DNA from: an uncultured Bacteroidales bacterium | GTDB lineage: Bacteria; Bacteroidota; Bacteroidia; Bacteroidales; VadinHA17 | NCBI GenBank assembly: GCA_963765005.1 | Contig: CAVXUP010000009.1 | Span: 269,609-333,608 of the forward strand | Direction: 5' to 3' | DNA length: 64,000 nucleotides | In this document: positions 6,951 through 32,276 of the stretch, one piece after another | How the letters are laid out: every line of letters begins with the position of its first letter | Numbering within the stretch: the first letter of the stretch is position 1 | Notes under the pieces: generated by a model | The model's database searches: none | What the model was told of the DNA's origin: nothing | What the model saw: only the letters and a program-made list of their open reading frames with translations | Translations under genes and position numbers: made by a program

Positions 6951-6965
6951 TATTGAACGAAGCAG

Positions 6966-8384
6966 ATGAAAATAATATATCATAGATTATTTGTCTTTAT
7001 ACTCTCATCAGTGATGCTGTTATCTTCGTGCGTAAGGAAAGCTGATAGTAATGTTCTCATAACACTGGGCCCAAAAGGAATTGGCAGTTCTGTCAGGCAA
7101 ATTCCGGGAGAAACAGAAAAGTCAGTCAAGACTGCAATATATTTAATAAATCAAGGAGATAAAGTGCTTACTCCGGTCAATCTGACCACTGATTTCTTCA
7201 GTGCAAAATCGCCTGTAGCGTCATACGACGGAACCCGTATGCTTTTTACAGCTCAAAAATCGGCAGGCGACAGCTGGCAGATCTGGGAGATGGATCTTGG
7301 AAAGAAGAAATCATATAAAATCATTTCTTCAGATAATGATTGTACAGATCAGACATACCTTCCAGGCGGCAGAGTAGCATTTATCATGCAGATGAAGAAT
7401 GATTCATTAAAGGCTGAACAGGCTCTCTTCACATGCAATACTGGCGGCACTGATCTCAGAAGGATCACTTTCAATCCGGGATATTACCGGTTCCTTACAA
7501 TAATGAAAGATGGAAGGCTTCTTGTCGCTGGCGGACAATCATACCCCGAAAGAGGCAAGGAGATCCTGATTGCAATGCGACCCGACGGAACAAAGTCTGA
7601 AATGTTCTACTCGCCGGATGATGGAGCCATTCTGCTTTCAAAGCCCTGTGAATCATCTGACGGGATGATACTCTTCTCCCAAAGCTCATCAAACGGAGGC
7701 TCTGGAATTCTTACTGCAATATCTTACAACAGGCCTCTTCATTCACGAAAAGATCTTTCTGAAGCTGTTACAGGTAGTGTCGAATATGTTGCTTCTTCTC
7801 AAACAGGTTCAGTTCTGGTGTCAGTTACGGAGAATAACGATGGGGGCTTTCACCTTTATGAATTTGATATTAAGACTGGACAAACAGGGAAAAAACTCTT
7901 TTCGGACAACGAACAGATAATCCTTGAAATAGCAAAGGCAGAAGCCAGTGAACGCCCTAAAAAACTTCCCAGCGAAGTTGATATGGAAGTAAAAACAGGG
8001 TTGTTGCTTTGTCAGAATGTAAATCTTACAGGAATGAAATCGCCTGAAAATATTGATAATTCCCAAGAAGCAACCAAAATTGAGATCTTAGGGGTCAGCG
8101 AATCTCTCGGGCTCGTTGAAGTTGAAAAGGACGGATCCTTTTATCTTAAGATTGCCGCAGACACACCGTTCAGGATAAGGTCGCTTGACAGCAATGGAAA
8201 TACGGTTAAAGGACCAGGAACATGGCTTTACATAAGGCCAAATGAACGGAGGGGTTGCGTCGGTTGCCATGAGGACCAGGAGATTGTACCTGCAAACAGG
8301 ATGTCACTTGCCGTAAGCAAACAACCTGTTGGAGTGCCGGTAAGACTGGATGCAATAAAGGAAAAAGAGGTAGAACTTGAATAG
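6966..8384 (+). CDS. Lipoprotein with a PD40/TolB-like beta-propeller and a C-terminal mono-haem c domain (resembles the hydrazine-synthase alpha middle domain family)
   Basis: Lipobox LLSSCVRK. PD40-like blades (SPVASYDGTRMLFTAQKSAGDSWQIWEMDL; RRITFNPGYYRFLTIMKDGRLLV). Single CxxCH near the C-terminus (WLYIRPNERRGCVGCHEDQ, nt 8256-8270). Confidence 0.7.
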   Translation: MKIIYHRLFVFILSSVMLLSSCVRKADSNVLITLGPKGIGSSVRQIPGETEKSVKTAIYLINQGDKVLTPVNLTTDFFSAKSPVASYDGTRMLFTAQKSAGDSWQIWEMDLGKKKSYKIISSDNDCTDQTYLPGGRVAFIMQMKNDSLKAEQALFTCNTGGTDLRRITFNPGYYRFLTIMKDGRLLVAGGQSYPERGKEILIAMRPDGTKSEMFYSPDDGAILLSKPCESSDGMILFSQSSSNGGSGILTAISYNRPLHSRKDLSEAVTGSVEYVASSQTGSVLVSVTENNDGGFHLYEFDIKTGQTGKKLFSDNEQIILEIAKAEASERPKKLPSEVDMEVKTGLLLCQNVNLTGMKSPENIDNSQEATKIEILGVSESLGLVEVEKDGSFYLKIAADTPFRIRSLDSNGNTVKGPGTWLYIRPNERRGCVGCHEDQEIVPANRMSLAVSKQPVGVPVRLDAIKEKEVELE

Positions 8385-8386
8385 CT

Positions 8387-10414
8387 ATGACAAAGAGGTC
8401 ATTTATCCTGATATTTATAATTTTTACAACCGGGCTGGTGGTTTATTTTCCCGGAAAGAAGTGGGCGCGGGGACATGTCAATTACAAGACAGCTGTTGAC
8501 GACCACCCTCTTTTGTGCACTAACTGCCATCTTCATATAACAAAAAACAAGGTTATTCGGAAACTTGTAAACTCAGACTATTATTCCCCTTTAAATCTGA
8601 CAGTTTCAGATGACGGCAAAATGCTGCTCATTGTCGCCGCTGACCGTGATGAACTGGTTGTTGCCGATGCAGAAAAAAGTAAAGTTATCAAAAGGATTAA
8701 AGTAGGAAATAAACCTCACTCCGTTATCCTTGACAAAGAGTGCAAAACTGCCTACATCAGCAATCAGTGGTCGGATAACATTTCAGTACTCGATATTGAG
8801 ACTCTTTCTGTCAAAGATACACTGCCATGCGGAAGCGGGCCTGCCGGTCTTGCTATCAGTTCAGACGGAAACTACCTTTATGTTGTAAATTCATTTGCAT
8901 CTGATCTTTCTGTAGTCGACATAAATAAAAAAACTGAGATCAAGAGGTTAACCACAGGTAATAATCCTACCGGAGCCCGGCTCTCTCCCGACGGAGCTGA
9001 AGTTTATATTTCAGCCAGACGGGCCAGGATCGACATGTATGGAGAACCTCTTGTCACAGAGCTTACAATAATCGATGACAGTATTCAGAGAATCAGGAAA
9101 TACCTCGATGTCCCTTCTGCTTACCTGATAGAGAATTTTGCCTTTACTCCAGGCGGCGACATGGCATTTTTCACAATGATACGTCCTAAAAATATGGTAC
9201 CATCCATTCAGGTTGAAAGAGGCTGGATGATGACTCACGGCATAGGGATAATAGAAAGAAAGGAGAATGGCAGGTTAATACAGCTGCTTCTGGATGAGCC
9301 CAATATGTACTATCCCGATCCTTTCGATATTGTAATTTCGCCAGATGGCAAGCGTGCATTTGTATCAAACAGTGGTGTTAATATCATAACAGTTGTAAAC
9401 ATCGATTCAGTAAGAAGTCTTATCAACAGGTCCACCCCTGAAATGCTCCAGATATGGCCAGATCATCTCGGAATCAGCAGCAGTTATGTGGAAAAAAGGA
9501 TCCCGACCGGATCGAATCCAAAGGGGCTTGCTCTCTCTCCGGACGGAAAAATACTCTATGTTGCAGAGCATCTCCAGGACCGGATAGGAGTAATCAGCAC
9601 TGAGACACTCGAATCCACAGGCGGTATAGAACTGGGAGGTCCGTCGAGGTTAACTGTAGCACGGAAGGGAAGAAGGCTGCTGAACAATGCAGGACATACC
9701 TTCCAGACCCAATATTCATGCTATACCTGTCACCCCGATGAGCATGAAGACGGGCTGGTATACAATATGGCATCAAAAGATATGGGACGCAACCTCACAA
9801 ATACACAGTCGTTGCGTGATATCGGCGATACACCTCCCTTCAAATGGAATGGAAAGAACCAGACAGTTTATAAACAGGATGGAATGAGATTCTCGACTGT
9901 TCTTACAAGGACGGAACAATTCTCATATAAAAACCTCGATGCAATATCAGCTTACATAATGAGAGGTATCCCCTACCCTCCCAATCTAAAATTCAATCCC
10001 ACAGGGAATCTTACAGAGGCACAACAGCGTGGGAAAGTTGTATTTGAAAGGACAAAAGACAATTCTGGCAGAGAGATCCCTGAAATTAACAGATGCATTA
10101 CATGCCACCCACCTCCTTACTATACGAACCTGAAAACAGCTGACGTAAGCACTCTGGCTGCGAGTGATGACTCAATGCTTTTTGACACACCTCATCTTAA
10201 TAATATTTACGCATCGCCCCCGTATCTTCATGATGGAAGGGCTAAAACTCTTGAGGAAATATGGACACTCTACGGCAAGGATGACAAGCATGGTCTTGCC
10301 GGAGACATGAATAAAAACCAGCTCAATGATCTGGTAGAATACCTGAAGTCACTGAGAAGTCCAGATTACGAGAAACAGACGATAGAAACCTACAAAGCAT
10401 CGGTAAACCATTAA
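8387..10414 (+). CDS. Membrane-anchored tri-haem protein: N-terminal CxxCH, YVTN/YncE-type beta-propeller, C-terminal di-haem cytochrome c peroxidase/MauG-like domain
   Basis: Three CxxCH motifs: CTNCH (nt 8516-8530), CYTCH, CITCH. Propeller repeats (GNKPHSVILDKECKTAYISNQWSDNISVLD; GSGPAGLAISSDGNYLYVVNSFASDLSVVD; GNNPTGARLSPDGAEVYIS; GSNPKGLALSPDGKILYVAEHLQDRIGVI). CCP/MauG-like PPYLHDGRAKTLEEIW. Confidence 0.8.
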   Translation: MTKRSFILIFIIFTTGLVVYFPGKKWARGHVNYKTAVDDHPLLCTNCHLHITKNKVIRKLVNSDYYSPLNLTVSDDGKMLLIVAADRDELVVADAEKSKVIKRIKVGNKPHSVILDKECKTAYISNQWSDNISVLDIETLSVKDTLPCGSGPAGLAISSDGNYLYVVNSFASDLSVVDINKKTEIKRLTTGNNPTGARLSPDGAEVYISARRARIDMYGEPLVTELTIIDDSIQRIRKYLDVPSAYLIENFAFTPGGDMAFFTMIRPKNMVPSIQVERGWMMTHGIGIIERKENGRLIQLLLDEPNMYYPDPFDIVISPDGKRAFVSNSGVNIITVVNIDSVRSLINRSTPEMLQIWPDHLGISSSYVEKRIPTGSNPKGLALSPDGKILYVAEHLQDRIGVISTETLESTGGIELGGPSRLTVARKGRRLLNNAGHTFQTQYSCYTCHPDEHEDGLVYNMASKDMGRNLTNTQSLRDIGDTPPFKWNGKNQTVYKQDGMRFSTVLTRTEQFSYKNLDAISAYIMRGIPYPPNLKFNPTGNLTEAQQRGKVVFERTKDNSGREIPEINRCITCHPPPYYTNLKTADVSTLAASDDSMLFDTPHLNNIYASPPYLHDGRAKTLEEIWTLYGKDDKHGLAGDMNKNQLNDLVEYLKSLRSPDYEKQTIETYKASVNH

Positions 10415-11616
10415 TGTCATTAGATATGAGAAAGAATAACCCGAAGAAACTACTGATTAAGGCTGTAGCACTAATAGTTGCCGGGATAACTATTCCGTCG
10501 TGCAACCAGGGAGGAGAAGGTAAAAAATCAGGCATTACCTCTTCTCAGAATGGCTCTGAACAAACGCTTTCTCAATCTGACGGCAAGGTATCAGGAAGTT
10601 CAGAAACAGAAAAAGTACCTGTGTATGGTAACTGGAGAAACTTCACTACAAAAGATGGCCTTCCTTCCGATAAAGCATACTGTGTCAGAATCATTGGAGA
10701 ACAGGTTATGGTAGGAACTCATGACGGACTTGCAGTTTATGAAAAAGGAAAGTGGAAAACATACACCACAAAAGACGGTCTCGCTCACAACGGCGTTGTT
10801 TCAGTAGATTACAGCGAACTTACAGGTGATGTCTGGATCGCAACACTCGGGGGACTCAACAGGTGGTCGGCAGGAAAGTTCGAAACGTTCAACCAGTTCA
10901 ATAGCGGAATGCCAAACGACCTTGTTTATAATGTCATCTGCGAAGGGAAAGATGTATGGGTAGCCACAGGCGGCGGAGCAGGTCACTATGACACCTTCTC
11001 AAAGGAATGGGAAATATTCACAGAAAAAAATGCACCAATGCATGAACCCTGGACTTATGGTATCTCTGCCGGGGACGGAAAGATTTTCATTGCAGCCTGG
11101 GGCGGAGGAGTAATAGAGTATAATACAAATACAAAGCAATTCAGGGATTATACCGATCCTGACGGTTTCATGGAGATAGACCTTCAGCCAAATGATGGCG
11201 TTGTTCACGATATCACTACAGCAACCTCATGGGCAAAAGGAAAACTATGGGTTTCAAGTTACTTCGGGATGAGCATGTATGACGGGAAATACTGGAAGGG
11301 TTTTTTTGATCATGACAGCGGCCTTGCAAGCAACTTTATAAATTTCATAAGGGCTGAAGGCGATGTAGCATTTGCCTGCAGTGACCGGGGCCTGAGCAGT
11401 ACAAACGGAGAGAGCTGGGTGACCTATAAAAAATTCGATAACAGCGAGAACGGTGTTGCTATTGTTACAAAGGGACCAGAAAAAAAAGAAATACAGCTTA
11501 CACCTTCGATTGCTCACAACTTCGTAATAGGAGTTGATGGAGAGAATGATGTCCTTTGGGTTGCAACATCAAGGGGGGTAAGCCGCGGTGAAGTTCTAAA
11601 AGGAATAAACTATTAA
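10414..11616 (+). CDS. Lipoprotein with two-component-regulator-propeller (Reg_prop)-like repeats
   Basis: Lipobox ITIPSCNQG. Repeats FTTKDGLPSDKAYCVRI...VGTHDGLAVY, YTTKDGLAHNGVVSV...WIATLGGLNRW, FNSGMPNDLVYNVICEGKDVWVATGGG. The start overlaps the upstream stop (TAATG). Confidence 0.7.
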   Translation: MSLDMRKNNPKKLLIKAVALIVAGITIPSCNQGGEGKKSGITSSQNGSEQTLSQSDGKVSGSSETEKVPVYGNWRNFTTKDGLPSDKAYCVRIIGEQVMVGTHDGLAVYEKGKWKTYTTKDGLAHNGVVSVDYSELTGDVWIATLGGLNRWSAGKFETFNQFNSGMPNDLVYNVICEGKDVWVATGGGAGHYDTFSKEWEIFTEKNAPMHEPWTYGISAGDGKIFIAAWGGGVIEYNTNTKQFRDYTDPDGFMEIDLQPNDGVVHDITTATSWAKGKLWVSSYFGMSMYDGKYWKGFFDHDSGLASNFINFIRAEGDVAFACSDRGLSSTNGESWVTYKKFDNSENGVAIVTKGPEKKEIQLTPSIAHNFVIGVDGENDVLWVATSRGVSRGEVLKGINY

Positions 11617-11643
11617 AAATACATAACCAGACAAAATAATACT

Positions 11644-12225
11644 ATGATAATGACTGACAAACAACTACTTATTGATCTTTCAAACCTTACAGAGGGTGAA
11701 CGCACTGAGATGAAAAAGCTTGGCCTGTTATCAGGTGACAATAAGCTTGCAGAATTTGTATACCCAGCTTTTCACAACGATCGTCCGCCAATAGAAAAAC
11801 ATGTTGTGCATGCCCCTCATGTTATAAACGAAGCATATAACTACCAGAAACCATCATCCTTTTCCAGAGCACTCAGGCTTGACTTCGGCGATTATAAAAT
11901 TCTTCTGATTTCGGGAACTGCCAGCGTCAACGAAGAGGGTAAAGCTGAGCATATAGGTGATTTCAAGGCTCAGTTATGGAGGACTTACCGTAATATTACC
12001 AATCTGCTGGCAGCGGAAGGGATGTCATGGCATGATATTGTCAGAACAACTAATTACCTGAGAGACATAGAGAGGGATTATGCTGAATTCAATAAAATAA
12101 GAACCACCTTCTACAGGTGGATGAATCTTGATCCTTTGCCGGCAAGTACAGGCATACAGGCAAGGCTTTGCTGGGAAACACTCCTTGTCGAGATCGAGGC
12201 TTATGCTGTCTGTAAAATCAAATAA
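11644..12225 (+). CDS. YjgF/RidA-fold (chorismate-mutase-like superfamily) protein with a roughly 60-aa N-terminal extension
   Basis: ILLISGTASVNEEG...DFKAQLWRTYRNITNLLAAEGMSWHDIVRTTNYL...PASTGIQARLCWETLLVEIEAYAV matches the RidA/YjgF C-terminal signature (P-A-x-T/S...L-V-E-I-E). Confidence 0.7.
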   Translation: MIMTDKQLLIDLSNLTEGERTEMKKLGLLSGDNKLAEFVYPAFHNDRPPIEKHVVHAPHVINEAYNYQKPSSFSRALRLDFGDYKILLISGTASVNEEGKAEHIGDFKAQLWRTYRNITNLLAAEGMSWHDIVRTTNYLRDIERDYAEFNKIRTTFYRWMNLDPLPASTGIQARLCWETLLVEIEAYAVCKIK

Positions 12226-12232
12226 AAAATAA

Positions 12233-13546
12233 ATGAAAGCATTACTTAAGAATTTTAGTACAATGCTGTTATTTCTGGCCTTTACAGTTCTGATAGCTGA
12301 AGGTCAGCAGGCAAATCCTAATTATGGGAATATCCCCGATGAACTCGTCGCCTACGACAGGTACCAGAAAGCATACAAGTATCATTTCATGGAACCGATG
12401 CAGTTTTATGGAGCGGGCCGTGAGAAACTTCCGCCCACGGACCTGAAGGAGGTAAGAATCGGATTTCTCGGACCGCTTGAAGGCTCAATCCTGGTAAATC
12501 TGGGCAAGCAGATGAAACAGGGTGCTGAAATGGCTGTTGAGCAAGCAAATAAGAAAGGCGGTTACAAGGGGCTTCCTTTCACAATGATGCTTCATAATGA
12601 TGCAGGTCTGTGGGGAGCTGCAGCCAATGAAATCGTGAAAATGGATGATGAGGGTGTCTGGGCCTGGCTAGGGTCGATCGATGATATAGTATCACATGTT
12701 GCAATAAGGGCTACACTGAAACTTGAAATCGCGAATGTCAATACCGGTGATCCTGATCCTACATTCACTGAAACAAACATCCCCTGGGTGATAAGGGTAA
12801 TTCCCGACGACAGGCAAAGCAGTTATGTACTTGTCAACCAAATCTACAAAATTGACCGTCACTCAAGAGTGGCTGTGATGAGAGCAAATAACAGGTATGG
12901 CCGTGTAGGTACCCTGCATTTCAACCGCTCTGCCAGCAGGATTGGATATCCTATCATAATCGAGGAAAGGTTTAATGATGGAGAAACAACATTTGCTTCG
13001 CAGCTTGAACGCATTAAAAAGGCAAAACCGGATGCAATTCTCGTCTGGGGAAATGCACAGGAATCAGCTCTCATTTTAAAGGAGATCCGCAGTATGGGAA
13101 TGAAGCAACCGATTTATGGTTCTGACAGGATGGTGAGTCAGGAATTCCTTAGTGCTGCCGGAGATCTGGCAAATGGCATTAAGACTACCTGTCAGTATAA
13201 TCCCGACTCAAATGATCCAAAACTTCAGGCTTTCAGGGCTGAGTACAGAAAAAGATATAATATGGAAGCTGATGTTTTCGCAGCCCATGCATACGACGGT
13301 ATGAATATAATCATTGAAGCTGTAAGGAAAGCCGGACTGAACAGGGTCCTGATCAGAGATCTGCTTACCGACTCGAAGACATTCAATGGTTATGAGGGAG
13401 TTACCGGCAAGATAATCCTTGACGGAACATGGAATAATATAAGGCCTATATATTCGGCTAAGATAAATAATGGTAAATTTGAATTCTCTCCGGCTCCGAA
13501 GTGGGAAAAGGATGACAAGATTTACAAGAAATCCAGGGAGTATTAA
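12233..13546 (+). CDS. Periplasmic binding protein, LivK/Peripla_BP_6 type (orphan: no permease or ATPase nearby)
   Basis: Signal peptide. VRIGFLGPLEGSILVNLGKQMKQGAEMAVEQANKKGGYKGLPF... is the typical branched-chain/aromatic-ligand SBP N-terminus. Also FAAHAYDGMNIIIEAV. Confidence 0.85.
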   Translation: MKALLKNFSTMLLFLAFTVLIAEGQQANPNYGNIPDELVAYDRYQKAYKYHFMEPMQFYGAGREKLPPTDLKEVRIGFLGPLEGSILVNLGKQMKQGAEMAVEQANKKGGYKGLPFTMMLHNDAGLWGAAANEIVKMDDEGVWAWLGSIDDIVSHVAIRATLKLEIANVNTGDPDPTFTETNIPWVIRVIPDDRQSSYVLVNQIYKIDRHSRVAVMRANNRYGRVGTLHFNRSASRIGYPIIIEERFNDGETTFASQLERIKKAKPDAILVWGNAQESALILKEIRSMGMKQPIYGSDRMVSQEFLSAAGDLANGIKTTCQYNPDSNDPKLQAFRAEYRKRYNMEADVFAAHAYDGMNIIIEAVRKAGLNRVLIRDLLTDSKTFNGYEGVTGKIILDGTWNNIRPIYSAKINNGKFEFSPAPKWEKDDKIYKKSREY

Positions 13547-13568
13547 GAATAAGTAAGAAAAAACTGTG

Positions 13569-14435
13569 ATGGAGACATTTTCGTGTGATAATCCTGTTAA
13601 TGATAAATTTAAGATTCCCTCTAAAGTCAGCCGGAACAGAAGATCAGATAATACTGTTGTCGAAGTAAAAGGAGTTGAAATAGGCGGATCTGAAGTAATT
13701 ATTATAGCAGGCCCCTGCGCTGTTGAAAATAAAGAACAGCTGTTTGAAACTGCAAGAGCTGTAAAAGCCGGCGGTGCCAGGATATTGAGAGGTGGAGCTT
13801 TCAAACCACGCTCCTCCCCCTATAACTTTCAGGGAATGGGCGAAGAGGGACTGATACTTCTGCGCGACATAAGCAGAGAAACTGGTATGCCGGTAGTTAC
13901 TGAGGTTATGGACACAAGGCAGATGGAACTTGTTGCATCATATGCAGATATGATACAGATTGGTTCGAGAAATATGCAGAATTACCCTCTGCTCAAGGAA
14001 GCAGGATTGTTACGTAAACCAGTACTGCTTAAAAGAGGCATGATGGCAACAATCGAAGAGTTTCTTCTGGCAGCCGAATATATCCTTAGTCAGGGTAATG
14101 AACAGGTAATTCTCTGTGAACGAGGTATCCGAACCTTCGAAACATCAACCCGTAATACCCTGGATCTTAGCGCTGTGCCTATGCTTAAGCATCTGACTCA
14201 TCTGCCTGTAATTATTGATCCCAGTCATGGTACGGGGCTCAGATGGATGGTGCCTTCAATGGCAAAGGCTGCTGTTGCAGTAGGAGCTGACGGTCTTATT
14301 ATTGAAGTTCATTATAAACCCGAAGAGGCGCTCTGCGATGGACACCAGTCTCTTAATATTATGGAATTCAACACAATGATGGCCGATCTTGATAAGATAG
14401 CCTCAGCCGTGAACAGGAAGACATCTCTTACTTAA
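13569..14435 (+). CDS. aroF: 3-deoxy-7-phosphoheptulonate (DAHP) synthase, type I-beta, with no fused regulatory or chorismate mutase domain
   Basis: [64 protein letters not shown] motifs. The GAFKPR-SPY-FQG motif separates it from KDO8P synthase. Confidence 0.9.
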
Positions 14436-14462
14436 CTTTATCCTCCGGGGGAGATTTATTAC

Positions 14463-15584
14463 ATGATTTTTCTGAACCTGCTAATTCCTGCCTGCATTCT
14501 GCTGGGCAGTATGAATCGCACCGATTGCACTGTACTGATTCAGAAGGAATCCCTATATCTCAACGGCAAAACCAGGATAGGTTTATTAATCGACAATAAA
14601 AGTTCTCTTGCAGCAAAGCATGCCGCAGAGATGGCAATCAGTGAGGCCAACAATAAGGCAGGTGCAACAGGCATGAAGTTTGAGCTTGTGGTCCGCTCTA
14701 TGGAAGGCCCCTGGGGTACAGGATCAAAGCAGACAGTAAACCTGATTTTTGATGAGAATGTTATTGCAATAGCGGGTTCTCATGATGGCCGCAATGCCCA
14801 CCTTGCTGAGCAGGTTTGTGCAAAATCGGGGGTTACCCTTATTTCTGCCAGGGCCAGCGACCCCACCCTTTCGCAGGCCTTTGTCCCCTGGTATTTCAGC
14901 TGCGTCCCAAACGACGACCAGCAGGCTTCAGTCTTATTTGAAGAAATTACTCTCATGGCAAAAGAGAGTGAAGTACTGCTGATATCAGAGAACTCATATG
15001 ATGCGAAACAGGCCTCAAAAAGTTATATCAGAAAAAATAAAAGCAAGGGATTGAAGGAGCCCGAAGTGTTTTCATACAACGACTATGACAATGATCTTTC
15101 GGGATTAGCAGCCTCTATAAAAAGAACAGGAAAGAAATGCATTGTAATCTTTGGTAAACCTCCTTCAGCTATAAAGCTCCTGAAGGAGATCCGAAAAATA
15201 AAGCCCGAAATAATCATGTTTGCATCACTTTCGATAATGGACGAGAACAAACTACCGGTTAATGAGCTTTACCAGTTCGAAGATCTTTATATTGTTTCTC
15301 CCGGCCTGATCAATTCTCCTAAATGGACTGAATTCAGCAAGGAGTATCAGAGACTGTACGGATATGCACCAGGAGCCATAGCTTCATTCTCCTACGATGC
15401 AATGAATGTAATTATTGAAGCTATAAATGAGACCGGACCAGACCAGGAATTGATGCAAAACACAATTGCGAAAAGGAGATTTAACGGAGTAACCGGACCT
15501 ATAGAATTTGATGAACATGGAAACAGGAAATGGCCATTTGGAATGATTATCATAAAAAACGGGATTCCAACTCCTGTCAGGTGA
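14463..15584 (+). CDS. Second LivK/Peripla_BP_6-type binding protein (orphan)
   Basis: TRIGLLIDNKSSLAAKHAAEMAISEANNKAGATGMKFELVV..., IASFSYDAMNVIIEAI, FNGVTGPIEFDEHGNR. Confidence 0.8.
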   Translation: MIFLNLLIPACILLGSMNRTDCTVLIQKESLYLNGKTRIGLLIDNKSSLAAKHAAEMAISEANNKAGATGMKFELVVRSMEGPWGTGSKQTVNLIFDENVIAIAGSHDGRNAHLAEQVCAKSGVTLISARASDPTLSQAFVPWYFSCVPNDDQQASVLFEEITLMAKESEVLLISENSYDAKQASKSYIRKNKSKGLKEPEVFSYNDYDNDLSGLAASIKRTGKKCIVIFGKPPSAIKLLKEIRKIKPEIIMFASLSIMDENKLPVNELYQFEDLYIVSPGLINSPKWTEFSKEYQRLYGYAPGAIASFSYDAMNVIIEAINETGPDQELMQNTIAKRRFNGVTGPIEFDEHGNRKWPFGMIIIKNGIPTPVR

Positions 15585-15626
15585 TAATGAGGTCAGTTTA
15601 TGCATATATTTCATAATTTTGAGAGC

Positions 15627-18600
15627 ATGAAAGATTTATTAAAAATACTGGTCGCACTGACCTTCATTCTAAGTCTTGCAGGATGCAGGAACAGGGCTGA
15701 TAACGGAGGAAGCAAATCAACTGACCTGATATCAGTCAAAACACTGGGACTTGCTTACCTTGAGGAATTTAAACATGAAGAAGCCGAAAAAGAGTTCCTG
15801 AAATTTATAAAGCTGGCTCCTGAAGATAAATTCGGATACGCCAACCTGGGACTGGTATACCTCAGGCTTGCCAGGTATAAGGAAGCAGAAGAACAGCTGT
15901 TCAAGGCAATAAAAATAGCACCCGAAGATCCGGATATCAGGCTTATTCTGGCAACGGTATACAGGATGAACAATGAGAGTGATAAGGCAATCTCTGTACT
16001 CTCAGAAGCCCTGAAATCTTCTCCTGATCATGCTAAAATGCTCTATGATCTGTCGGAGTTGTATTTAGCATCACCGAACCAGGAATCTGATATAAAAAGG
16101 GAAGAGTGTCTTAAAAGACTCGCAGAAAAAGCCCCTGGAAACCTTGTACCCCTTCTTAGTCTTACAGAGATCTTTATTAAAAAGGGATTGTATGACGAAG
16201 CTGTGGCAGAACTTGAGATCATAAAGAAACAATTCCCTGAATTTCCAAAGGAGGCTAACGAATATTATGAGAAGACACTTTCACTATTGAGAAAGGGAGA
16301 TAAGGACAATGCTCTTATCAGCTACACCATTTTCAACAACTACCTGAAGGTTACAAATCCTTACCAGGCAGGCATTATTGAACTTAAAGGCCCTGGCGGA
16401 GCGCTTATTGGATTTCCGGTAATAACATTTGCTCCGCAGACATCAACCCGGATGGCACAGAATGAATCTCTTCTCGATATCCTGGTCTTCACTGATGCCA
16501 CTGTCTCTTCCGGACTCTCAGTTATTCCCTCAGATAGTACAGGAGATAAAAACGGGCAAAGCAATTCATTCACTGCTCTCAATGATTATGACGGTGATGG
16601 TGATACAGACATTTATTCCGGAAGTTACGATAAGAGCACTTCAACATATAAACATTACCTTCTGAATAATGAAATGGGCCGGTTCAGGGAGATCTCGGCC
16701 GATGCCGGAATTAACATGACCGGTGTTGAAAATGGCGCATCTTTTGCTGATTTTGACAATGATGGTTTTCCTGATCTGCTTATACTGCGATCTGATGGAA
16801 ATAAACTTTATAAAAACACGGGAAAAGGGAGTTTTGAAGATGTTACAAAGAGCTCCCGTATGCCTGAAAAATCTACTGGCAAAAAGGCCCTCTTTTTTGA
16901 CCCCGATCATGACGGAGATCTTGATCTCCTCGAGACAGGATCATCAAAGATTCTCGTGATGAGGAATAATGCAGATGGAACGTTCCTTGAGAACTCCGGA
17001 GCAATGGGGCTGGCAGGTGAAAACGGACCGGCAGGTGATGCGGCATTCGGCGATTTTGATGAGGATGGGGACATCGACCTGATAACTGCAGGTGAAAAGG
17101 GAGGCATAACTCTTTATTCAAACCAGCGTCAGGGCATTTTCAAAAACATTACCGAAACCAGCGGGCTCAGCAGCGTTGCCGGCTCAACTTCCATATCGGT
17201 CGGGGACTATAACAACGACGGGTACCTCGATCTTTTTGTAACTCCTGTTAAAGGCGGTGACTATAAGCTTTACAGGAACCTGCGAAACGGAAGCTTTGAA
17301 GCTGAAACCGGAACAGAGGATATGTTCAGTGCCCTCAGATCTCTTAATGCTTTTGATGCAGCCTTTATTGATTTTAACAACGACGGTTTTCTTGATCTTG
17401 CTGTGGCAGGTGAACAGCTGGAAAATACCGGAAGGGGTCTCTTTCTGTACTGCAATGATGGAAAAGGGAATTATTCAGATGTATCCCGTCTCCTTCCGGA
17501 AGAGATAGGATCTGCCAGGCAGCTTAATCTGTTCGACTATAATGATGATGGCGACATCGATCTTTTATTAACAAAAAGCGACGGAGGTGTGTGCCTGCTG
17601 AGAAATGACGGAGGCAATGAAAACCATTATATCACAATGAAACTTGTAGGCCTCAGGGCCGGAAGTGCAAAAAACAACCATTTCGGGATCGGGGCAAAAG
17701 TGGAAATGCGGGCCGGTGAACTCTATCAGACCCTGGTTGTAAATGATCCGAATATTCATTTCGGAATTGGATCACGTGCATATGCTGATATTATAAGAAT
17801 AACCTGGACAAACGGGGTGCCACAAAACATTTTCCTTCCGGGTTCAGGTCAGAGGCTAATAGAAGCCCAGACTCTCAAAGGATCATGCCCTTTTCTATAT
17901 GCCTGGAATGGGGAGGAATTTCAATTCTCAAAGGATATTATGTGGAGAAGTGCATTGGGCATGCCACTCGGGATTATGGGAGGCACAACTGCATACGCCT
18001 TTGCAGATGCATCGGACGACTACATTAAAATTCCCGGCGAATCACTGAAAGAAAAAAATGGTAAAATTCCTTTGCAGATAACTTCAGAATTATGGGAAAC
18101 AATTTACACCGATAAAATCGAACTTGTAGCTGTTGATCATCCTGAAACAGTCGAAGTTTTTGTTCCGGAACAATTCTCTCCCCCACCCTTCCCCGGACTG
18201 AAAATCACTGCCATCGCAGGTAAAAAAATACCCGTATCAGCTTTTGACGGGTACGGGAATGACCAGCTTAAAACCCTGTCCGAAAAGGACGACAGATATG
18301 TTGCAGGATTCAGACCCGATAAATACCAGGGTGTGACTGAAATGAATGAGCTCATAATTGATCCGGGGAAGTCAGGAAGAGATGGAAAGCTGCTGATGTT
18401 CATGAACGGCTGGATCTTCCCGACAGACGCCAGTATAAACTATGCCATCTCTCAATCTTCTGCTCTCAGTGTTGTTCCGCCAATCATTGAGGTACGCGAC
18501 GGAAAAGGCAACTGGGTAACAGTAATTGACAACCTTGGTTTTCCTATGGGAAAAGACAAGACAGTAATTGCCGATCTTACCGGTAAATTTCTTTCCGATG

Positions 18601-20774
18601 ACCGCACAATAAGAATAAGGTCCAATATGGAGATTTATTGGGATCAGATATTTTTTTCTGACGCGATATCCACTGCAGAGTTAGTCTCAACTACTTTATA
18701 TCCGGTATCTGCAGACCTTCATTACAGGGGCTTTTCGGAAAGCTACAGAAAAGGGGGACGATATGGTCCCCACTGGTTTGACTATTCAAAAGTTGAAAAG
18801 GGTCAGAAATGGAGAGACCTTACCGGCAACTATACTCGTTACGGTGACGTTCTCCAATTACTTGAAGAGTCTGATAATATGTATATCATATCTAACGCCG
18901 GTGATGAAACTACTATCGAATTTGATCCGAAGCTCTTACCTGAACTGAAAAAAGGATGGAAGAGGGATTTCTTCATTCACTCAGTCGGCTGGGTAAAAGA
19001 CGGTGATATAAATACTGCTTCTGGAAATACAGTTGAGCCGCTGCCATGGCATGGTATGAAGAGTTACCCTCCGGCAGAAAATGATAAGTATCCAAATGAT
19101 CCTGAACTTAAGAAATACCACAAGGAGTACAATACCAGGGTTGTCACCCAGGAGGAGTTCATTAATGCCATTAAACCAAAAACCAATAAATCTGTCGTTT
19201 TTACAGATGTGACTAAGAAAGCAGGGATTGATTTTAACTACACAATAGGCGACAACTCCTACGTCAACATTCTTGAAAGCAGTGGTTCAGGTATAACTGT
19301 CTTTGACTATAACAACGATGGGCTCATGGATATCTACCTCATGAACGGAACATATCTTGAAGGTATTTCTGACCCTGACGGAAAAATTTATAAAGACACA
19401 CCGGACAGACTTTACAGGAACGATGGTAATGGACGGTTTTCTGAGGTATCAGCTTCTGCAGGCCTTGATGACCGCAACTGGAGCATGGCTGCAGGGGCAG
19501 TTGATTATGACAATGACGGCGACCAGGACCTGTTCCTGTTGAATTACGGACCCAATAGGTTCTTCAGGAACAATGGAAACGGAACCTTCAGCGATATAAC
19601 TGCAGCAACAGGTCTCGCAGGTCCCGGTAAATTAAACGGATTCACCAAATGGAGCATTGGCGTCTCTTTTCTCGATTACAACAGCGATGGCAGGCTCGAC
19701 GCCATGGTTGGCAACTTCCTGGCTTTTGATCCGGCGTATGTATCAACTGCTGGTCCGGGAATAATGCCACACCCTTCAGAGTATAAAGGACAAGCGTCTT
19801 TATTGTATGAACAACAGCCTGACGGAAGCTTTACTGATGTCACAAAGCGAATGGGGCTCTTTTATCCCGATTCAAAATGCATGGGGCTGACAATTTACGA
19901 TTATGATGAAGATGGAGACCTCGATATTTTCCAGGCAAACGATCACCAGCTCAATTATCTTTTCAGGAGAGATAAGGAATTTTTTACAGAGGTGGCTGTC
20001 GGGAGCGGTGTGGCTGCAAACAGCAAAGGAATCGGGACAGGATCAATGCATGGGACAATCGGAGATGTTGACGGTGATGGTCTTGTCGATATACTTGTCA
20101 CTGACCTCGAATATGGAGCTCTGTACAGAAACAAGGGTAACGGACTTTATGAGGATATAACAGAAAAAAGCGGGATTGCATCTCAAATAGCCGGAAAAGG
20201 AAGCTGGGGGTCAGCACTGTTTGATTATGACAACGATGGCGACCTTGATATGGTGGCTGCCAATGGGACTGCAGAGGAACTTATATTGCAGTATCCTGTA
20301 CTGCTTGAAAATGACGGCAAGGGAAATTTCAGGAATGCAGGGCCCGAAGCCGGCTCATATTTTTCAGAAAAACGGTCAGGACGAGGCCTTGCGGTACTTG
20401 ACTATGATAACGATGGCGACCTCGACCTTACTGTTTCTCATGTTGATAAAAAAGGAACTGCAGTCCTGCTCAGGAACGATGGTGGCAATAACAATCACTG
20501 GATCGGCATAACGCTTAAAGGCAGAAATGGAGTTGCTCCTGCTATCGGGGCAAAAGTGGAAGTATCATCAGGAGGGAAAAAACAGGTGCATATTAACCAG
20601 TGGTCAACAAGCTATCTTTCAAATAATGATCCAAGGATGCATATAGGACTCGGGGAAAGCGAGAAAATTGACCTCCTCGAGATAACATGGTCGGATGGCA
20701 TGAAAGAGTCTTACAGAGACATAAGAGGCAACCGGTATATTATTCTTACTCAAGGGAAAGGAATAACAGAGTAA
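15627..20774 (+). CDS. Giant (about 1715 aa) lipoprotein: TPR region, two FG-GAP/ASPIC (CRTAC1-like) modules, and an unrecognised central domain of about 440 aa
   Basis: ATG 15627 gives MKDLLKILVALTFILSLAGC (the ORF track starts at 15600). Many D-x-D/N-x-D-G FG-GAP units. Two ASPIC/UnbV-like segments (NHYITMKLVGLRAGSAKNNHFGIGAKVEMRAG; NHWIGITLKGRNGVAPAIGAKVEVSSGGKKQ...YLSNNDPRMHIGLG). Confidence 0.85.
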   Translation: MKDLLKILVALTFILSLAGCRNRADNGGSKSTDLISVKTLGLAYLEEFKHEEAEKEFLKFIKLAPEDKFGYANLGLVYLRLARYKEAEEQLFKAIKIAPEDPDIRLILATVYRMNNESDKAISVLSEALKSSPDHAKMLYDLSELYLASPNQESDIKREECLKRLAEKAPGNLVPLLSLTEIFIKKGLYDEAVAELEIIKKQFPEFPKEANEYYEKTLSLLRKGDKDNALISYTIFNNYLKVTNPYQAGIIELKGPGGALIGFPVITFAPQTSTRMAQNESLLDILVFTDATVSSGLSVIPSDSTGDKNGQSNSFTALNDYDGDGDTDIYSGSYDKSTSTYKHYLLNNEMGRFREISADAGINMTGVENGASFADFDNDGFPDLLILRSDGNKLYKNTGKGSFEDVTKSSRMPEKSTGKKALFFDPDHDGDLDLLETGSSKILVMRNNADGTFLENSGAMGLAGENGPAGDAAFGDFDEDGDIDLITAGEKGGITLYSNQRQGIFKNITETSGLSSVAGSTSISVGDYNNDGYLDLFVTPVKGGDYKLYRNLRNGSFEAETGTEDMFSALRSLNAFDAAFIDFNNDGFLDLAVAGEQLENTGRGLFLYCNDGKGNYSDVSRLLPEEIGSARQLNLFDYNDDGDIDLLLTKSDGGVCLLRNDGGNENHYITMKLVGLRAGSAKNNHFGIGAKVEMRAGELYQTLVVNDPNIHFGIGSRAYADIIRITWTNGVPQNIFLPGSGQRLIEAQTLKGSCPFLYAWNGEEFQFSKDIMWRSALGMPLGIMGGTTAYAFADASDDYIKIPGESLKEKNGKIPLQITSELWETIYTDKIELVAVDHPETVEVFVPEQFSPPPFPGLKITAIAGKKIPVSAFDGYGNDQLKTLSEKDDRYVAGFRPDKYQGVTEMNELIIDPGKSGRDGKLLMFMNGWIFPTDASINYAISQSSALSVVPPIIEVRDGKGNWVTVIDNLGFPMGKDKTVIADLTGKFLSDDRTIRIRSNMEIYWDQIFFSDAISTAELVSTTLYPVSADLHYRGFSESYRKGGRYGPHWFDYSKVEKGQKWRDLTGNYTRYGDVLQLLEESDNMYIISNAGDETTIEFDPKLLPELKKGWKRDFFIHSVGWVKDGDINTASGNTVEPLPWHGMKSYPPAENDKYPNDPELKKYHKEYNTRVVTQEEFINAIKPKTNKSVVFTDVTKKAGIDFNYTIGDNSYVNILESSGSGITVFDYNNDGLMDIYLMNGTYLEGISDPDGKIYKDTPDRLYRNDGNGRFSEVSASAGLDDRNWSMAAGAVDYDNDGDQDLFLLNYGPNRFFRNNGNGTFSDITAATGLAGPGKLNGFTKWSIGVSFLDYNSDGRLDAMVGNFLAFDPAYVSTAGPGIMPHPSEYKGQASLLYEQQPDGSFTDVTKRMGLFYPDSKCMGLTIYDYDEDGDLDIFQANDHQLNYLFRRDKEFFTEVAVGSGVAANSKGIGTGSMHGTIGDVDGDGLVDILVTDLEYGALYRNKGNGLYEDITEKSGIASQIAGKGSWGSALFDYDNDGDLDMVAANGTAEELILQYPVLLENDGKGNFRNAGPEAGSYFSEKRSGRGLAVLDYDNDGDLDLTVSHVDKKGTAVLLRNDGGNNNHWIGITLKGRNGVAPAIGAKVEVSSGGKKQVHINQWSTSYLSNNDPRMHIGLGESEKIDLLEITWSDGMKESYRDIRGNRYIILTQGKGITE

Positions 20775-20806
20775 AGTTTGGAGTTTGGAGTTTGGAGTTT
20801 GGAGTT
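20775..20806. repeat. Heptamer tandem array (AGTTTGG x4.5)
   Basis: agtttggagtttggagtttggagtttggagtt begins at the first nt after the stop codon (20772-20774). Confidence 0.95.
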
Positions 20807-20822
20807 AATTATTAATACTTAT

Positions 20823-22157
20823 ATGGATATGAACAATCAATATGTCAGCAATGTGATTGATCTCACTGAGCCGGGGAAAAATGTAATATACAATATGACC
20901 CACGAGGAAGCAGTCAATATACTAAAGACCGGAGATACTGAAGGAGTGAGGAGAATCGACGGTAATTTTTCCCTGGTCTCCGTTGAAGGAAAGACAATCA
21001 GGATGGCAAGGTCAATCGGCCGTCCGATTCGATATTTCATCGCTAAACGGCCTGCCGGGCCGAACCTGGTTATTGCAGAACGTATCGATACGATTTACGA
21101 TTATCTTAAAAAAGAGGGACTTGAGGATCAGTTCCATCCATCATATACAAGAATGGCGCCAGCTCATTATATAACAAAGATTGAGCTTCTTGGCTGCCCC
21201 GATCCGAACCCTGTATACAGCAGGTTTTTTACTCCTGAGCGAAACAGCCTAAACGCTGAGAACCCGGCTCAGATTGGTGAAAAATACATGTCTGCTCTTT
21301 ACAACGAAATAAAGAAGTGGCTGAAGAAGACTGCAACAACAGGACCTGTAGGCGTCACATTCTCAGCCGGCGTGGACAGCGGATCAGTGTTCCTCCTTAC
21401 CTATCATGCTCTCAGGGAGCTAGGAGAAAGTCCTTCCCGGCTAAAAGCATTCACCCTGTCGATAGAAGGTGAAGGAGCTGACCTGATACAGGCCCGAAAA
21501 TTTCTCGAAGCGCTGAACCTTGAAATGTTCCTTGAACCAGTTGAGCTTGACTATACCGCTCTCAACTGGAAAAATGCCGTCAGGATTGTAGAGGATTATA
21601 AACCACTCGATATTCAGTCTGCCACAATGAACCTTTCACTTCTTCAGGGAATCCGCTCACGATATCCCGACTGGAAACATCTTATCGATGGAGATGGAGG
21701 TGATGAGAATCTTAAGGACTATCCCATTGAAGAAAATCCGGAACTCACAATCCGCAGCGTTCTTAATAACCTGATGCTTTACCACGAGGGCTGGGGAGTT
21801 GATTCAATAAAACACTCTCTGACCTATACAGGCGGGCTTAGCAGAGGATACATGCGATCGTATGCAACAATGGATAGCCTCGGCTTTAATGGATTCAGTC
21901 CATATACACTGCCAAATGTTATAGAAATTTCAGAAGGTATCCCATATATTGATATGACCGGCTGGGATCACCAGAAGCTTTATGAGCTGAAAGGAAAAAT
22001 CGTAGCTTATGGAATCAAGGCAGTGACCGGCATGGATATGCCTCTCTTCCCAAAAAGACGTTTCCAGCATGGTGCAGCATCACCTGAAGATTTCAGATCT
22101 GCCTTTCCTGCAAAGGAAACAGAATACAGGAAGGAGTTCCTTTCAGCTTATGAATGA
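20823..22157 (+). CDS. Asparagine-synthetase-like ATP-pyrophosphatase (PP-loop adenylating enzyme) lacking the Ntn-glutaminase Cys
   Basis: PP-loop GVTFSAGVDSGSVFLL. AsnB-like IDGDGGDENLKDY. The N-terminus is MDMNNQ (no Cys2). The TTG start at 20778 in the ORF track lies inside the heptamer array. Confidence 0.8.
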   Translation: MDMNNQYVSNVIDLTEPGKNVIYNMTHEEAVNILKTGDTEGVRRIDGNFSLVSVEGKTIRMARSIGRPIRYFIAKRPAGPNLVIAERIDTIYDYLKKEGLEDQFHPSYTRMAPAHYITKIELLGCPDPNPVYSRFFTPERNSLNAENPAQIGEKYMSALYNEIKKWLKKTATTGPVGVTFSAGVDSGSVFLLTYHALRELGESPSRLKAFTLSIEGEGADLIQARKFLEALNLEMFLEPVELDYTALNWKNAVRIVEDYKPLDIQSATMNLSLLQGIRSRYPDWKHLIDGDGGDENLKDYPIEENPELTIRSVLNNLMLYHEGWGVDSIKHSLTYTGGLSRGYMRSYATMDSLGFNGFSPYTLPNVIEISEGIPYIDMTGWDHQKLYELKGKIVAYGIKAVTGMDMPLFPKRRFQHGAASPEDFRSAFPAKETEYRKEFLSAYE

Positions 22158-23121
22158 GGAAAATCAGCTGCTTATCACCGACAGGTGGATAATATCGGCC
22201 AGGGGAACAAAGAATCCTGTTGACACCAGCAGGCCCTATGGCTGTATGGTTGAGAAGGAACTAACAGCTTCAGGTAAACTTGAGGATACTGCCATTATCT
22301 TCCTTACCAATATGGAATGCCCTTTCCACTGCCTGATGTGTGACCTTTGGAAGAACACTACTGACCAGCCTGTTCCGCCTGGTGCCATCCCTGTGCAGAT
22401 AGAATATGCACTTGCTCAGCTCCCTGAGGTAAAGCATGTAAAACTATATAACAGCGGTAGTTTTTTCGATACAAGGGCTATTGCTGAAAATGAGTATGAA
22501 AAGATTGCCTCCCTCCTTTCGGGTTTCGACACTGTTATTGTTGAAAGCCATCCCCGGTTTATAGATAAGAAGTGCGTACGCTTCAGGGATATGATAAGCG
22601 GTGAACTTGAGATAGCAATCGGACTGGAGGCAGCTGATGATGAGATGCTCAGAAGGATTAACAAGAGGATGACAACGGATGAGTTCAGGCAAGCGGTCAG
22701 ATTTCTTCGTGAAAATGATATCAGAACCAGGGCATTCATTCTTCTGAGGCCACCTTTCCTTTCAGAGGAAGAGGGAATTGAAATGGCCGAAAGGTCATTG
22801 CGTTTTGCATTCAGCACCGGAGTTGAATGCTGCACTGTCATTCCGGTAAGGCCGGGAAACGGGGCCATTAATATTCTCCGGGAAAAAGGATCTTACACAC
22901 CCCCGGATATTGGCTCGCTTGAGAGGGTACTTGAATATGGGATCAGCCTTGGTGCGGGACGCGTATTTGCAGATACATGGGATCTGAAACTCTTTTCGAA
23001 GTGCGGTAAATGCCTCGGTCGTAAAACGGACAGGATCATAGAAATGAATAACACTCAAAAGATAGCTGACCCGGTAGAATGTATGTGTAATGTTGAGTCT
23101 CCTGGTCTCAGCAGACCTTAA
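22150..23121 (+). CDS. Radical SAM enzyme (ELP3/TIGR01210/RaSEA-like class)
   Basis: CxxxCxxC in NMECPFHCLMCDLW. Also LYNSGSFFD, VESHPRFID, IGLEAADDEMLRRINKRMTTDEF. ATG 22150 overlaps the upstream stop (ATGAATGA), which suggests translational coupling. Confidence 0.85.
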   Translation: MNEENQLLITDRWIISARGTKNPVDTSRPYGCMVEKELTASGKLEDTAIIFLTNMECPFHCLMCDLWKNTTDQPVPPGAIPVQIEYALAQLPEVKHVKLYNSGSFFDTRAIAENEYEKIASLLSGFDTVIVESHPRFIDKKCVRFRDMISGELEIAIGLEAADDEMLRRINKRMTTDEFRQAVRFLRENDIRTRAFILLRPPFLSEEEGIEMAERSLRFAFSTGVECCTVIPVRPGNGAINILREKGSYTPPDIGSLERVLEYGISLGAGRVFADTWDLKLFSKCGKCLGRKTDRIIEMNNTQKIADPVECMCNVESPGLSRP

Positions 23122-23221
23122 TGGTAAATTAAAAAAATATTCTAACTTTATTTTGATCTGAAATTATGCAGGGTGGCAATAATTCCATAAGTTCACATTC
23201 TTTTTAGTTATTCATTAATTG

Positions 23222-26565: not shown

Positions 26566-26578
26566 GACACCCCCTCAT

Positions 26579-26845
26579 ACAACATCAATAAAAGGATCTT
26601 CTTTTAAACATGTAAGGGCGCAATATTTTCGCCTACAACATTAATGAAAAGGATCTTCTTTTAAACATGTAAGGGCGCAAAATTTTGCGCCCCTACAACA
26701 TTAATGAAAGGATCTTATGTAAAACATGTAAGGGCGCAATATTTTGCGCCCCTACAACATTAATGAAAGGATCTTATGTAAAACATGTAGGGGCGCAAAA
26801 TTTTGCGCCCCTACAACAATATTTAAAAGGATCTTCCTATCAATA
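26579..26845. repeat. Tandem array (4 full copies plus 1 partial) of a 56-60 bp unit, each carrying a GC-rich palindrome
   Basis: Units start at 26579, 26635, 26695, 26754 and 26813 (ACAACATTAATGAAAGGATCTTATGTAAAACATGTAGGGGCGCAAAATTTTGCGCCCCT). A perfect 24-bp palindrome aggggcgcaaaattttgcgcccct lies at 26789-26812. The array sits between convergent genes. Confidence 0.95.
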
Positions 26846-28607: not shown

Positions 28608-28639
28608 AACTCTAATTTTAAATGTTTAAAACATATTTG

Positions 28640-31955: not shown

Positions 31956-32091
31956 ACTTTTAAGGTTAGAAGGTTAGAATTTTTTTTAAATAGATTAATT
32001 TCTAATAATAAAAAAATATTCTCCGGAAGGTCAGAATACTTCCGAAAAACAGTTTTAAGGTTAATAAGAGTTGTGCATAGGCAATTATTTT

Positions 32092-32163
32092 TTAGGTTAG
32101 GTTAGAAAGTATAGGTTAAAGTCAAAAGTCAAAAGTCAAAAGTCAAAAGTATCAAAAGATCAA
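32092..32163. repeat. Heptamer arrays (AGGTTAG degenerate; GTCAAAA x4)
   Basis: ttaggttaggttagaaagtataggttaaa, then gtcaaaagtcaaaagtcaaaagtcaaaagtatcaaaag. A related aaggttagaaggttagaa lies at 31962-31979. Confidence 0.95.
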
Positions 32164-32276
32164 TCCGCCATGAATGACAAAATTCGGACTTTTTAAAATT
32201 ATATAAAATTATCTAATAAAAACAAGTCATTAAACAAAAACTTTCATGCTTAATATCACATTCAAGGGTGAAATGG

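Follow-up and report, generated by a model that had tools for sequence, protein, structure and literature searches.

In a 64,000-nucleotide stretch of an uncultured Bacteroidales genome (VadinHA17; GenBank assembly GCA_963765005.1, contig CAVXUP010000009.1, positions 269,609 to 333,608 of the forward strand), hereafter the window, a gene for an AsnB-like PP-loop synthetase overlaps a gene for a radical S-adenosylmethionine (SAM) protein that is a full-length homologue of RaSEA. We regard this pair as a putative RaSEA-type enzyme recruited to an ATP-dependent ligase within a periplasmic system. The radical SAM gene follows the AsnB-like gene in 75 of the 80 genome loci that encode the AsnB-like protein, a sample drawn from Bacteroidota (many families, including cultured Maribacter), Chlorobiota, Neomarinimicrobiota, Planctomycetota, Verrucomicrobiota and Gemmatimonadota; of the five loci without a following radical SAM gene, at least two have sequence for no more than about 100 bases beyond the AsnB-like gene. 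Overlap between the genes is seen in 65 of the 73 loci where it could be measured, 55 of the 73 having the identical 8-nucleotide geometry, and distant members stay paired at 45-48% identity for the AsnB-like protein and 33-35% for the radical SAM protein. A preliminary description of this DNA had made its two-gene proposal depend on the genes being neighbours elsewhere, and the survey bears this out. A literature search, partly poorly targeted, found no publication on the AsnB-like/radical SAM pair.

The overlapping pair

The AsnB-like gene lies at 20823..22157 on the forward (+) strand, running from an ATG at 20823 to a TGA at 22155-22157 and encoding 444 amino acids with the N-terminus MDMNNQ. 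Because most homologues begin MNxQY, the second ATG, at 20829, may be the true start; the stored gene call of 452 amino acids would by arithmetic begin at a TTG at 20799, within a heptamer repeat. The RaSEA-like radical SAM gene occupies 22150..23121 (+), from an ATG at 22150 to a TAA at 23119-23121, and encodes 323 amino acids. An alternative in-frame ATG is present at 22069, and homologues align from the MNE/MSE start at 22150. The overlap of stop and start noticed in the preliminary description is real: the octamer ATGAATGA (22150..22157, +) holds both the radical SAM ATG at 22150 and the AsnB-like TGA at 22155, so that the genes share 8 nucleotides. At E<=0.001, and among the 8000 candidates scored per search, about 8000 AsnB-like and 7747 radical SAM homologues were found; with thousands of homologues each, both open reading frames (ORFs) are taken to be real genes.

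The motifs by which the two proteins had been recognised are in place as well. In the translated AsnB-like ORF, the PP-loop SAGVDSGS, an ATP pyrophosphatase motif, spans residues 181-188 (21363..21386, +), and the described GDGGDE lies within DGDGGDE, residues 289-295 (21687..21707, +), which aligns with SGEGSDE of E. coli AsnB. The radical SAM ORF at 22150-23121 contains CPFHCLMC, LYNSGSFFD, ESHPRF and GLEAADD..L..INK, all four of the motifs reported for it, and direct reading of the sequence finds KLYNSGSFFD, VESHPRF and GLEAADDEMLRRINK. The CxxxCxxC within CPFHCLMC (C57, C61 and C64; 22318..22341, +) is the [4Fe-4S] cluster motif and is invariant in our alignments. A second cysteine motif, CxxC...CxC (C285, C288, C311 and C313; 23002..23088, +), lies near the C-terminus and is likewise invariant across the family.

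Non-coding sequence around the pair offers little further information. Promoter-like and terminator-like sites near the two genes are no commoner than in shuffled sequence, and none of the Rfam families attains its gathering score in any part of the window, which leaves no hint of a riboswitch. Most of the 48-nucleotide spacer that separates the AsnB-like gene from the gene upstream consists of a perfect tandem heptamer, AGTTTGG, repeated 4.6 times (20775-20806). This repeat was not found in the other fetched loci checked (L001-L088) and is therefore not considered part of the system.

Family membership of the two proteins

The AsnB-like protein belongs to the Asn_synthase superfamily (PF00733), with which it shares the PP-loop SxGxDS and the acidic G-D/E-G-x-D-E motif, but the match is confined to about 170 residues of the synthetase core. 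It scores 40.7 bits against the Pfam model (gathering threshold 21), over residues 171-306 only, corresponding to model positions 15-141 of 354. Against E. coli AsnB, hhalign aligns only residues 158-329, with AsnB positions 215-401; this segment includes the PP-loop, which falls opposite SGGLDSS, and leaves the N-terminal 157 and the C-terminal 115 residues outside the match. With the asparagine synthase equivalog model TIGR01536 (cutoff 267.1) the score is 34 bits. No NCBIfam model matches the segment 1-170, and neither Pfam nor NCBIfam reports a GATase domain for the full-length protein. The preliminary description had noted that the protein starts MDMNNQ and so lacks the Cys2 required for glutamine hydrolysis. 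Indeed there is no cysteine near the N-terminus, whether the start is MDMNNQ or MNNQ, and beyond that the whole N-terminal Ntn/glutaminase domain characteristic of asparagine synthetase B is undetectable. Judged by its sequence, then, this is a very divergent PP-loop synthetase without a detectable glutaminase domain, and not an AsnB that has merely lost Cys2.

For this protein the profile searches proposed in the preliminary description recover the synthetase core and nothing more specific. For the lasso-cyclase and beta-lactam-synthetase clades there was no NCBIfam match at E<=0.01 other than TIGR01536, whichever such models the library contains, and no sequence in the PDB matched at E<=1, with either a single sequence or a profile as query. 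A hhalign comparison of the AsnB-like profile with an ArcS-like protein gave a probability of 0.3%, and the N-terminal domain is not similar to such a protein either. Conservation within the family itself is high: members share 80-91% identity inside Bacteroidales and about 60% when compared across phyla, and some 150 columns are invariant among 31 sequences from at least six phyla. These include S181, G183, D185, S186 and G187 of the PP-loop as well as D289, G290, G292, G293, D294 and E295, with position 291 being either D or E. With the AlphaFold2 (AF2) model of this protein (mean predicted local distance difference test score, pLDDT, 51.5; input alignment limited to sequences of at least 80% identity), Foldseek returned generic PP-loop folds only (NadE, ASNS, LarE and TtuA).

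For the radical SAM protein, the sole substantial family match is TIGR01210, the RaSEA model, as the preliminary description had supposed, and no other characterised subfamily competes with it. The match is essentially full length (residues 42-313 to model positions 10-295 of 313) and far above that to any other family, but its score of 116.9 bits falls well short of the equivalog cutoff of 212.15. A Gemmataceae orthologue scores similarly, at 113.7 bits. Because the score is below the cutoff, we treat the protein as a RaSEA paralogue. It has the full-length homology and the CxxxCxxC motif of RaSEA; its partner, by contrast, is not ArcS, the DUF5591/TGT-related lysine transferase, but the AsnB-like protein, and an ArcS-like partner turned up only for a distant relative, P0494. 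Its sequence thus indicates common descent with RaSEA, and, given the failed cutoff and the other partner, it should not be filed under that name.

Seven cysteines are invariant across the radical SAM family (314 clusters at 50% identity, E<=1e-30), namely the CxxxCxxC triad and the C-terminal CxxC...CxC. The latter matches no model and may bind a further metal or Fe-S centre. Pfam detects PF04055 only, with no SPASM/twitch domain. The AF2 model is a confident radical SAM barrel (pLDDT 92.4), for which Foldseek finds only generic radical SAM barrels at a template modelling (TM) score of about 0.5, none of the top 50 matches being described as RaSEA; sequence and profile searches of the PDB gave chance-level matches only. 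Both proteins of the pair are acidic, with isoelectric points of 5.3-6.7.

Two relatives of the radical SAM protein occur in other arrangements. The first, P0494, shares 32% identity with the window protein and reaches 168.7 bits with the TIGR01210 model. It belongs to a minimal archaeosine-type pair (L092 5884-8485): its gene overlaps one for only 216 amino acids that matches the DUF5591 region of ArcS (full-length ArcS models have 515-575 positions), and it adjoins a Vut_1 family transporter gene. This overlap implies that the RaSEA-like family pairs with different conjugating enzymes. The second, P0453, is a single protein of 896 amino acids in which a RaSEA-like radical SAM domain is followed by one hydrophobic helix and then by five FG-GAP repeats with an ASPIC domain. 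It is identical on two contigs from independent sequencing runs (L089 8142-10832; L090 8136-10826), neither of which has an AsnB-like gene. Related radical SAM proteins therefore occur with an ArcS-like partner, with an AsnB-like partner, or fused to an FG-GAP/ASPIC protein, and the C-terminal CxxC...CxC is kept in both P0494 and P0453.

Genomic setting and a candidate reaction

The preliminary description had treated the two genes in isolation; the pair stands as described, but it belongs to a much larger conserved cluster that was not seen there. It closes a run of twelve same-strand (+) genes extending over some 18 kb, from 5265 to 23121, with gaps of at most 48 nucleotides. The genes within 5265..15584 (+) encode, in order, an FG-GAP/UnbV_ASPIC lipoprotein, a protein resembling the alpha subunit of hydrazine synthase (HZS) with one CxxCH (CVGCH at residue 431), an HZS-beta-gamma-like fusion with three CxxCH, a 400-amino-acid propeller-like lipoprotein, a RidA-like protein without signal peptide that has a weak chorismatase-like match, a Peripla_BP_6 binding protein, a bona fide DAHP synthase that clears its cutoff with 454.6 bits and a second Peripla_BP_6 binding protein. 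The gene immediately upstream of the pair (15600..20774, +; Pfam) encodes a CRTAC1-like lipoprotein of 1724 amino acids with TPR, FG-GAP and UnbV_ASPIC domains. In relatives this ORF is represented by two genes, of about 1186 and 558 amino acids (for example in L081 and L001), and the single ORF of the window is either a real gene fusion or the product of a lost stop codon. A Cu/Ag-type (CusRS-like) heavy-metal two-component system at 2885-4934 (+) ends 330 nucleotides upstream of the cluster and could regulate it.

Clusters of 'clade III' HZS homologues have been described as an FG-GAP/CRTAC1 gene followed by alpha, by beta-gamma with one extra heme motif and by two ABC-type binding proteins (Genome Biol Evol 2025, PMC12758564), an arrangement that the window fits between 5265 and 15584. 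That paper appears silent on the AsnB-like/radical SAM pair, the DAHP synthase and the RidA-like gene: a text search of it finds no 'asparagine', and 'radical' only in the reference list. The gene order of the window recurs in L081 and L084, one a Bacteroidota genome and the other an Anaerolineales-labelled genome. In 11 other loci the FG-GAP-HZS module sits downstream of the radical SAM gene instead, so the linkage between the pair and the HZS-like genes survives rearrangement.

Linkage to FG-GAP/ASPIC genes is the most consistent feature beyond the pair itself. In 53 of 69 loci such a gene, encoded on the same strand, is the immediate upstream neighbour of the pair, and one is also found beside the pair in a 9.3-Mb contig of the Planctomycetota-type branch and in one further locus belonging to it. 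In L093 the AsnB-like, radical SAM and FG-GAP genes, the last with a signal peptide, follow each other in that order and overlap mutually, forming a translationally coupled triad.

In other lineages a third gene accompanies the pair. A flavoenzyme of 481-520 amino acids follows after a gap of at most 7 nucleotides in 9 of 10 annotated loci from Planctomycetota-type, Gemmatimonadota and Limisphaerales genomes. Comparison with the flavin-dependent halogenases CtcP and PltM gives it 166-181 bits, and it keeps GxGxxG, with W.W.L[RK] in place of WxWxIP. A conserved lysine of the flavoenzyme (G.KRGF) aligns with a lysine of CtcP that we take to be the catalytic one. Its best NCBIfam match is a weak one to QhpG, followed by CmlS and, again weakly, the geranylgeranyl reductase family, and then by LodB and GoxB. 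No homologue of this halogenase-like gene was found in the window or in the Bacteroidota loci.

The nearest characterised precedent for the pair is archaeal. ArcS attaches lysine to preQ0 and is reportedly active only in complex with RaSEA, which then converts preQ0-Lys to archaeosine (PMC11298593). Like that euryarchaeal system, the pair combines a full-length RaSEA/TIGR01210 homologue bearing CxxxCxxC with an adjoining, usually overlapping, gene for a partner able in principle to attach an amine, and the C-terminal CxxC...CxC is common to the window protein and to the ArcS-partnered P0494. The analogy gains weight from the overlap of the P0494 gene with an ArcS-like gene. It differs in its bacterial host, in the lower TIGR01210 score (116.9 against the cutoff of 212.15), in having an ATP-dependent PP-loop synthetase where ArcS is ATP-independent and TGT-related, and in its association with exported FG-GAP/ASPIC proteins without any preQ0 or tRNA context.

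On this analogy we tentatively propose that the pair is a two-enzyme complex in which an amine donor is ligated to an adenylated carboxylate and then cleaved by radical chemistry, the reaction order put forward in the preliminary description. The AsnB-like and RaSEA-like proteins would probably form a physical complex following the logic of ArcS-RaSEA with a different first enzyme. The AsnB-like enzyme, which has no domain that generates amide nitrogen and therefore needs an external amine, would use ATP to adenylate a carboxylate of the substrate and would join it to a donor amino acid (by analogy, lysine) through the amino group of that donor. The RaSEA-like enzyme would then fragment the N-C bond of the donor by means of a 5'-deoxyadenosyl radical, leaving the nitrogen on the substrate, so that the net outcome would be a glutamine-independent amidation or a related tailoring. 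The most likely substrate would be a small, possibly shikimate-derived, cytoplasmic metabolite, whose product would serve the exported FG-GAP/ASPIC (CRTAC1-like) propellers and the HZS-like cytochrome module of the same cluster. A small aromatic metabolite is favoured because a DAHP synthase is encoded in the cluster alongside a RidA-like protein whose chorismatase-like match is weak, because the third gene in other phyla is halogenase-like (PltM and CtcP act on small aromatics), because both pair proteins are acidic, and because no precursor peptide gene is present.

Several observations weigh against this proposal. The radical SAM score is so far below the RaSEA cutoff that the chemistry may differ. 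The AF2 model of the AsnB-like protein is too poor to reveal a substrate pocket, and the cross-phylum identity of about 60% in this protein would be equally compatible with a macromolecule as substrate. The cluster shows no evident exporter for a product. The DAHP synthase and RidA-like genes are absent from the sampled Planctomycetota and Gemmatimonadota loci, and because both these genes and the halogenase-like gene are lineage-restricted, a small-molecule scaffold is not supported by any one common gene set.

A bolder version of the proposal, which we think improbable as a whole, would have the pair make a new diffusible cofactor or ligand for exported CRTAC1-like propellers and HZS-like cytochromes, in the manner of pyrroloquinoline quinone (PQQ), which is made in the cytoplasm for use by propeller dehydrogenases of the periplasm. 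The pair would act together with the DAHP synthase and RidA-like protein in Bacteroidota, or with the flavoenzyme in the Planctomycetes-Verrucomicrobia-Chlamydiae (PVC) group and Gemmatimonadota, and would use an amino acid as nitrogen donor followed by radical dealkylation, thereby extending the ArcS-RaSEA strategy from archaeal tRNA to bacterial metabolism. If the ligation-then-cleavage logic holds, nitrogen donation by an amino acid with radical removal of its skeleton would be a general strategy, not one peculiar to archaeosine, and bacteria in at least five phyla would have combined it with an ATP-dependent ligase. The pair would also offer a biochemical entry to two large protein sets: CRTAC1-like FG-GAP/ASPIC propellers, which have an animal homologue, and non-anammox homologues of hydrazine synthase, whose role bears on the origin of anammox. 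Among cultured bacteria, Maribacter arenosus CAU 1321 and M. luteus RZ05 carry the pair, which makes it directly testable.

Two alternatives are each somewhat less probable than the ligation-then-cleavage reaction. One, to which we give perhaps a minor share of credence, is that the pair matures a protein or peptide before export, the target being one of the FG-GAP/ASPIC proteins, a subunit of the HZS-like type or some small protein encoded at an unlinked site. In the manner of a lasso cyclase, the AsnB-like enzyme would form an isopeptide or amide bond at the carboxylate of an Asp, a Glu or the C-terminus. A crosslink or quinone-type cofactor would be introduced by the radical SAM enzyme, together with the flavoenzyme in those loci that have one, much as quinohemoprotein amine dehydrogenase is matured by QhpD and QhpG. 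Such a role would suit the tight linkage, and in one instance the fusion, of the pair to exported FG-GAP/ASPIC genes, the conserved extra four-cysteine motif of the radical SAM protein, and the very high conservation of the AsnB-like protein, as expected of macromolecule recognition. The flavoenzyme, too, has QhpG as its best NCBIfam match and, lower down, LodB and GoxB, all makers of protein-derived quinone cofactors. It is much closer, however, to the small-molecule halogenases (166-181 bits), and in the fusion P0453 the radical SAM and propeller domains would lie on opposite sides of the membrane. The Bacteroidota cluster is packed (gaps of at most 48 nucleotides) and has no small precursor ORF; neither a SPASM/twitch domain nor a match to lasso cyclase models or models of RiPPs, peptides made by ribosomes and modified after translation, was found. 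In PqqE/PQQ and QhpD-QhpG systems, as here, genes for cytoplasmic radical SAM enzymes, with or without a flavoenzyme, cluster with genes for exported propellers and c-type cytochromes. This likeness is one of architecture only, since PqqE and QhpD show no homology to the window protein, which lacks SPASM and has no precursor peptide gene in view.

The other, which we hold to be about as doubtful as maturation, reverses the order of the reactions. In preQ0 biosynthesis, the radical SAM enzyme QueE is followed by the PP-loop ATPase QueC, an established pairing, and AsnB-family synthetase domains such as that of beta-lactam synthetase operate without a glutaminase domain, as the AsnB-like enzyme would have to do. 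The radical SAM protein would accordingly build or rearrange a carboxylated intermediate, and the PP-loop enzyme would next amidate, cyclise or convert its carboxylate, drawing on free ammonia or on an amine within the molecule, with no cleavage of an amino-acid donor. As in QueE-QueC, a radical SAM enzyme would work with a PP-loop enzyme that activates a carboxylate for the installation of nitrogen. Yet neither pair protein matches a QueE or QueC model at E<=0.01 (Pfam, NCBIfam), and no other que genes occur in the window cluster or the sampled loci. The gene order, like the presumed reaction order, is the opposite one: the AsnB-like gene consistently comes first and is coupled to the radical SAM gene behind it. 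The only characterised relative of the radical SAM protein also acts after its partner. Neither point is decisive.

We consider it unlikely that the pair acts on a membrane lipid or isoprenoid, for instance by tailoring a hopanoid or a molecule of the carotenoid type. In one Pirellulales locus (L083 4188-19807), the triad of AsnB-like, radical SAM and halogenase-like genes does lie within a hopanoid biosynthesis cluster, with two SQS_PSY genes and an amine oxidase on one side and PNP_UDP_1, a DUF3463 radical SAM gene and squalene-hopene cyclase on the other. In L077 an FA_hydroxylase gene overlaps the start of the AsnB-like gene, and the weak match of the flavoenzyme to the geranylgeranyl reductase family points the same way. 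Context of this kind, however, is found in only two or three loci and in none of the sampled Bacteroidota loci, and it leaves the FG-GAP/ASPIC linkage unexplained.

Less credible still is a modification of tRNA or of a 7-deazaguanine nucleoside by a bacterial pathway resembling that of archaeosine. RaSEA is the closest characterised relative, and some relatives adjoin ArcS-like and Vut_1 genes. Against this, no tgt, queC, queD, queE or ArcS-like gene adjoins the pair in the sampled bacterial loci; the only TGT gene close by, in L085, precedes yajC and secDF, an arrangement common among housekeeping genes. The preliminary description had left the substrate as a metabolite, a tRNA or a peptide, and of these tRNA is now unlikely because both proteins are acidic, because tgt and que neighbours are lacking, and because the pair is linked to genes for exported proteins. 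Finally, an ordinary asparagine synthetase beside an unrelated radical SAM gene, as source annotations reading 'asparagine synthase (glutamine-hydrolysing)' would have it, is effectively refuted by the TIGR01536 score (34 bits against a cutoff of 267), by the absence of a glutaminase domain and of a cysteine nucleophile, by the lack of a sequence match to any solved AsnB-family structure, profile query included, and by adjacency and overlap that are conserved across phyla.

Minor features of the window

Directly behind the radical SAM gene the window carries about 9 kb (23219-32270; a PD40 protein, DUF6057 and SusD/SusC) that is extra relative to the close relatives L001, L003, L004, L006 and L008, in all of which TruA directly follows the radical SAM gene. 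L010 shares PD40 and DUF6057 with the window, and L007 shares PD40. The SusD/SusC genes appear to be split into consecutive ORFs at 26840-31955 (-) and at 1005-2459 (-): a SusD_RagB C-terminal part is separate from a SusD-like_3 N-terminal part, the C-terminal 324 amino acids of a SusC are separate from its N-terminal 810, and another SusC ORF extends over just positions 1-443 of the 981 in the model. These split ORFs are either pseudogenes or the result of frameshift errors.

Farther downstream, at 33094-37972 (+), lie genes for an Rrf2-family regulator, a 189-amino-acid protein, a 539-amino-acid protein resembling subunit I of heme-copper oxidases, possibly of the nitric oxide reductase type, two Sulf_transp half-proteins and a rhodanese. 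In close relatives the same synteny is found right behind the pair and TruA, and the COX1-like protein of L001 is 88% identical to that of the window.

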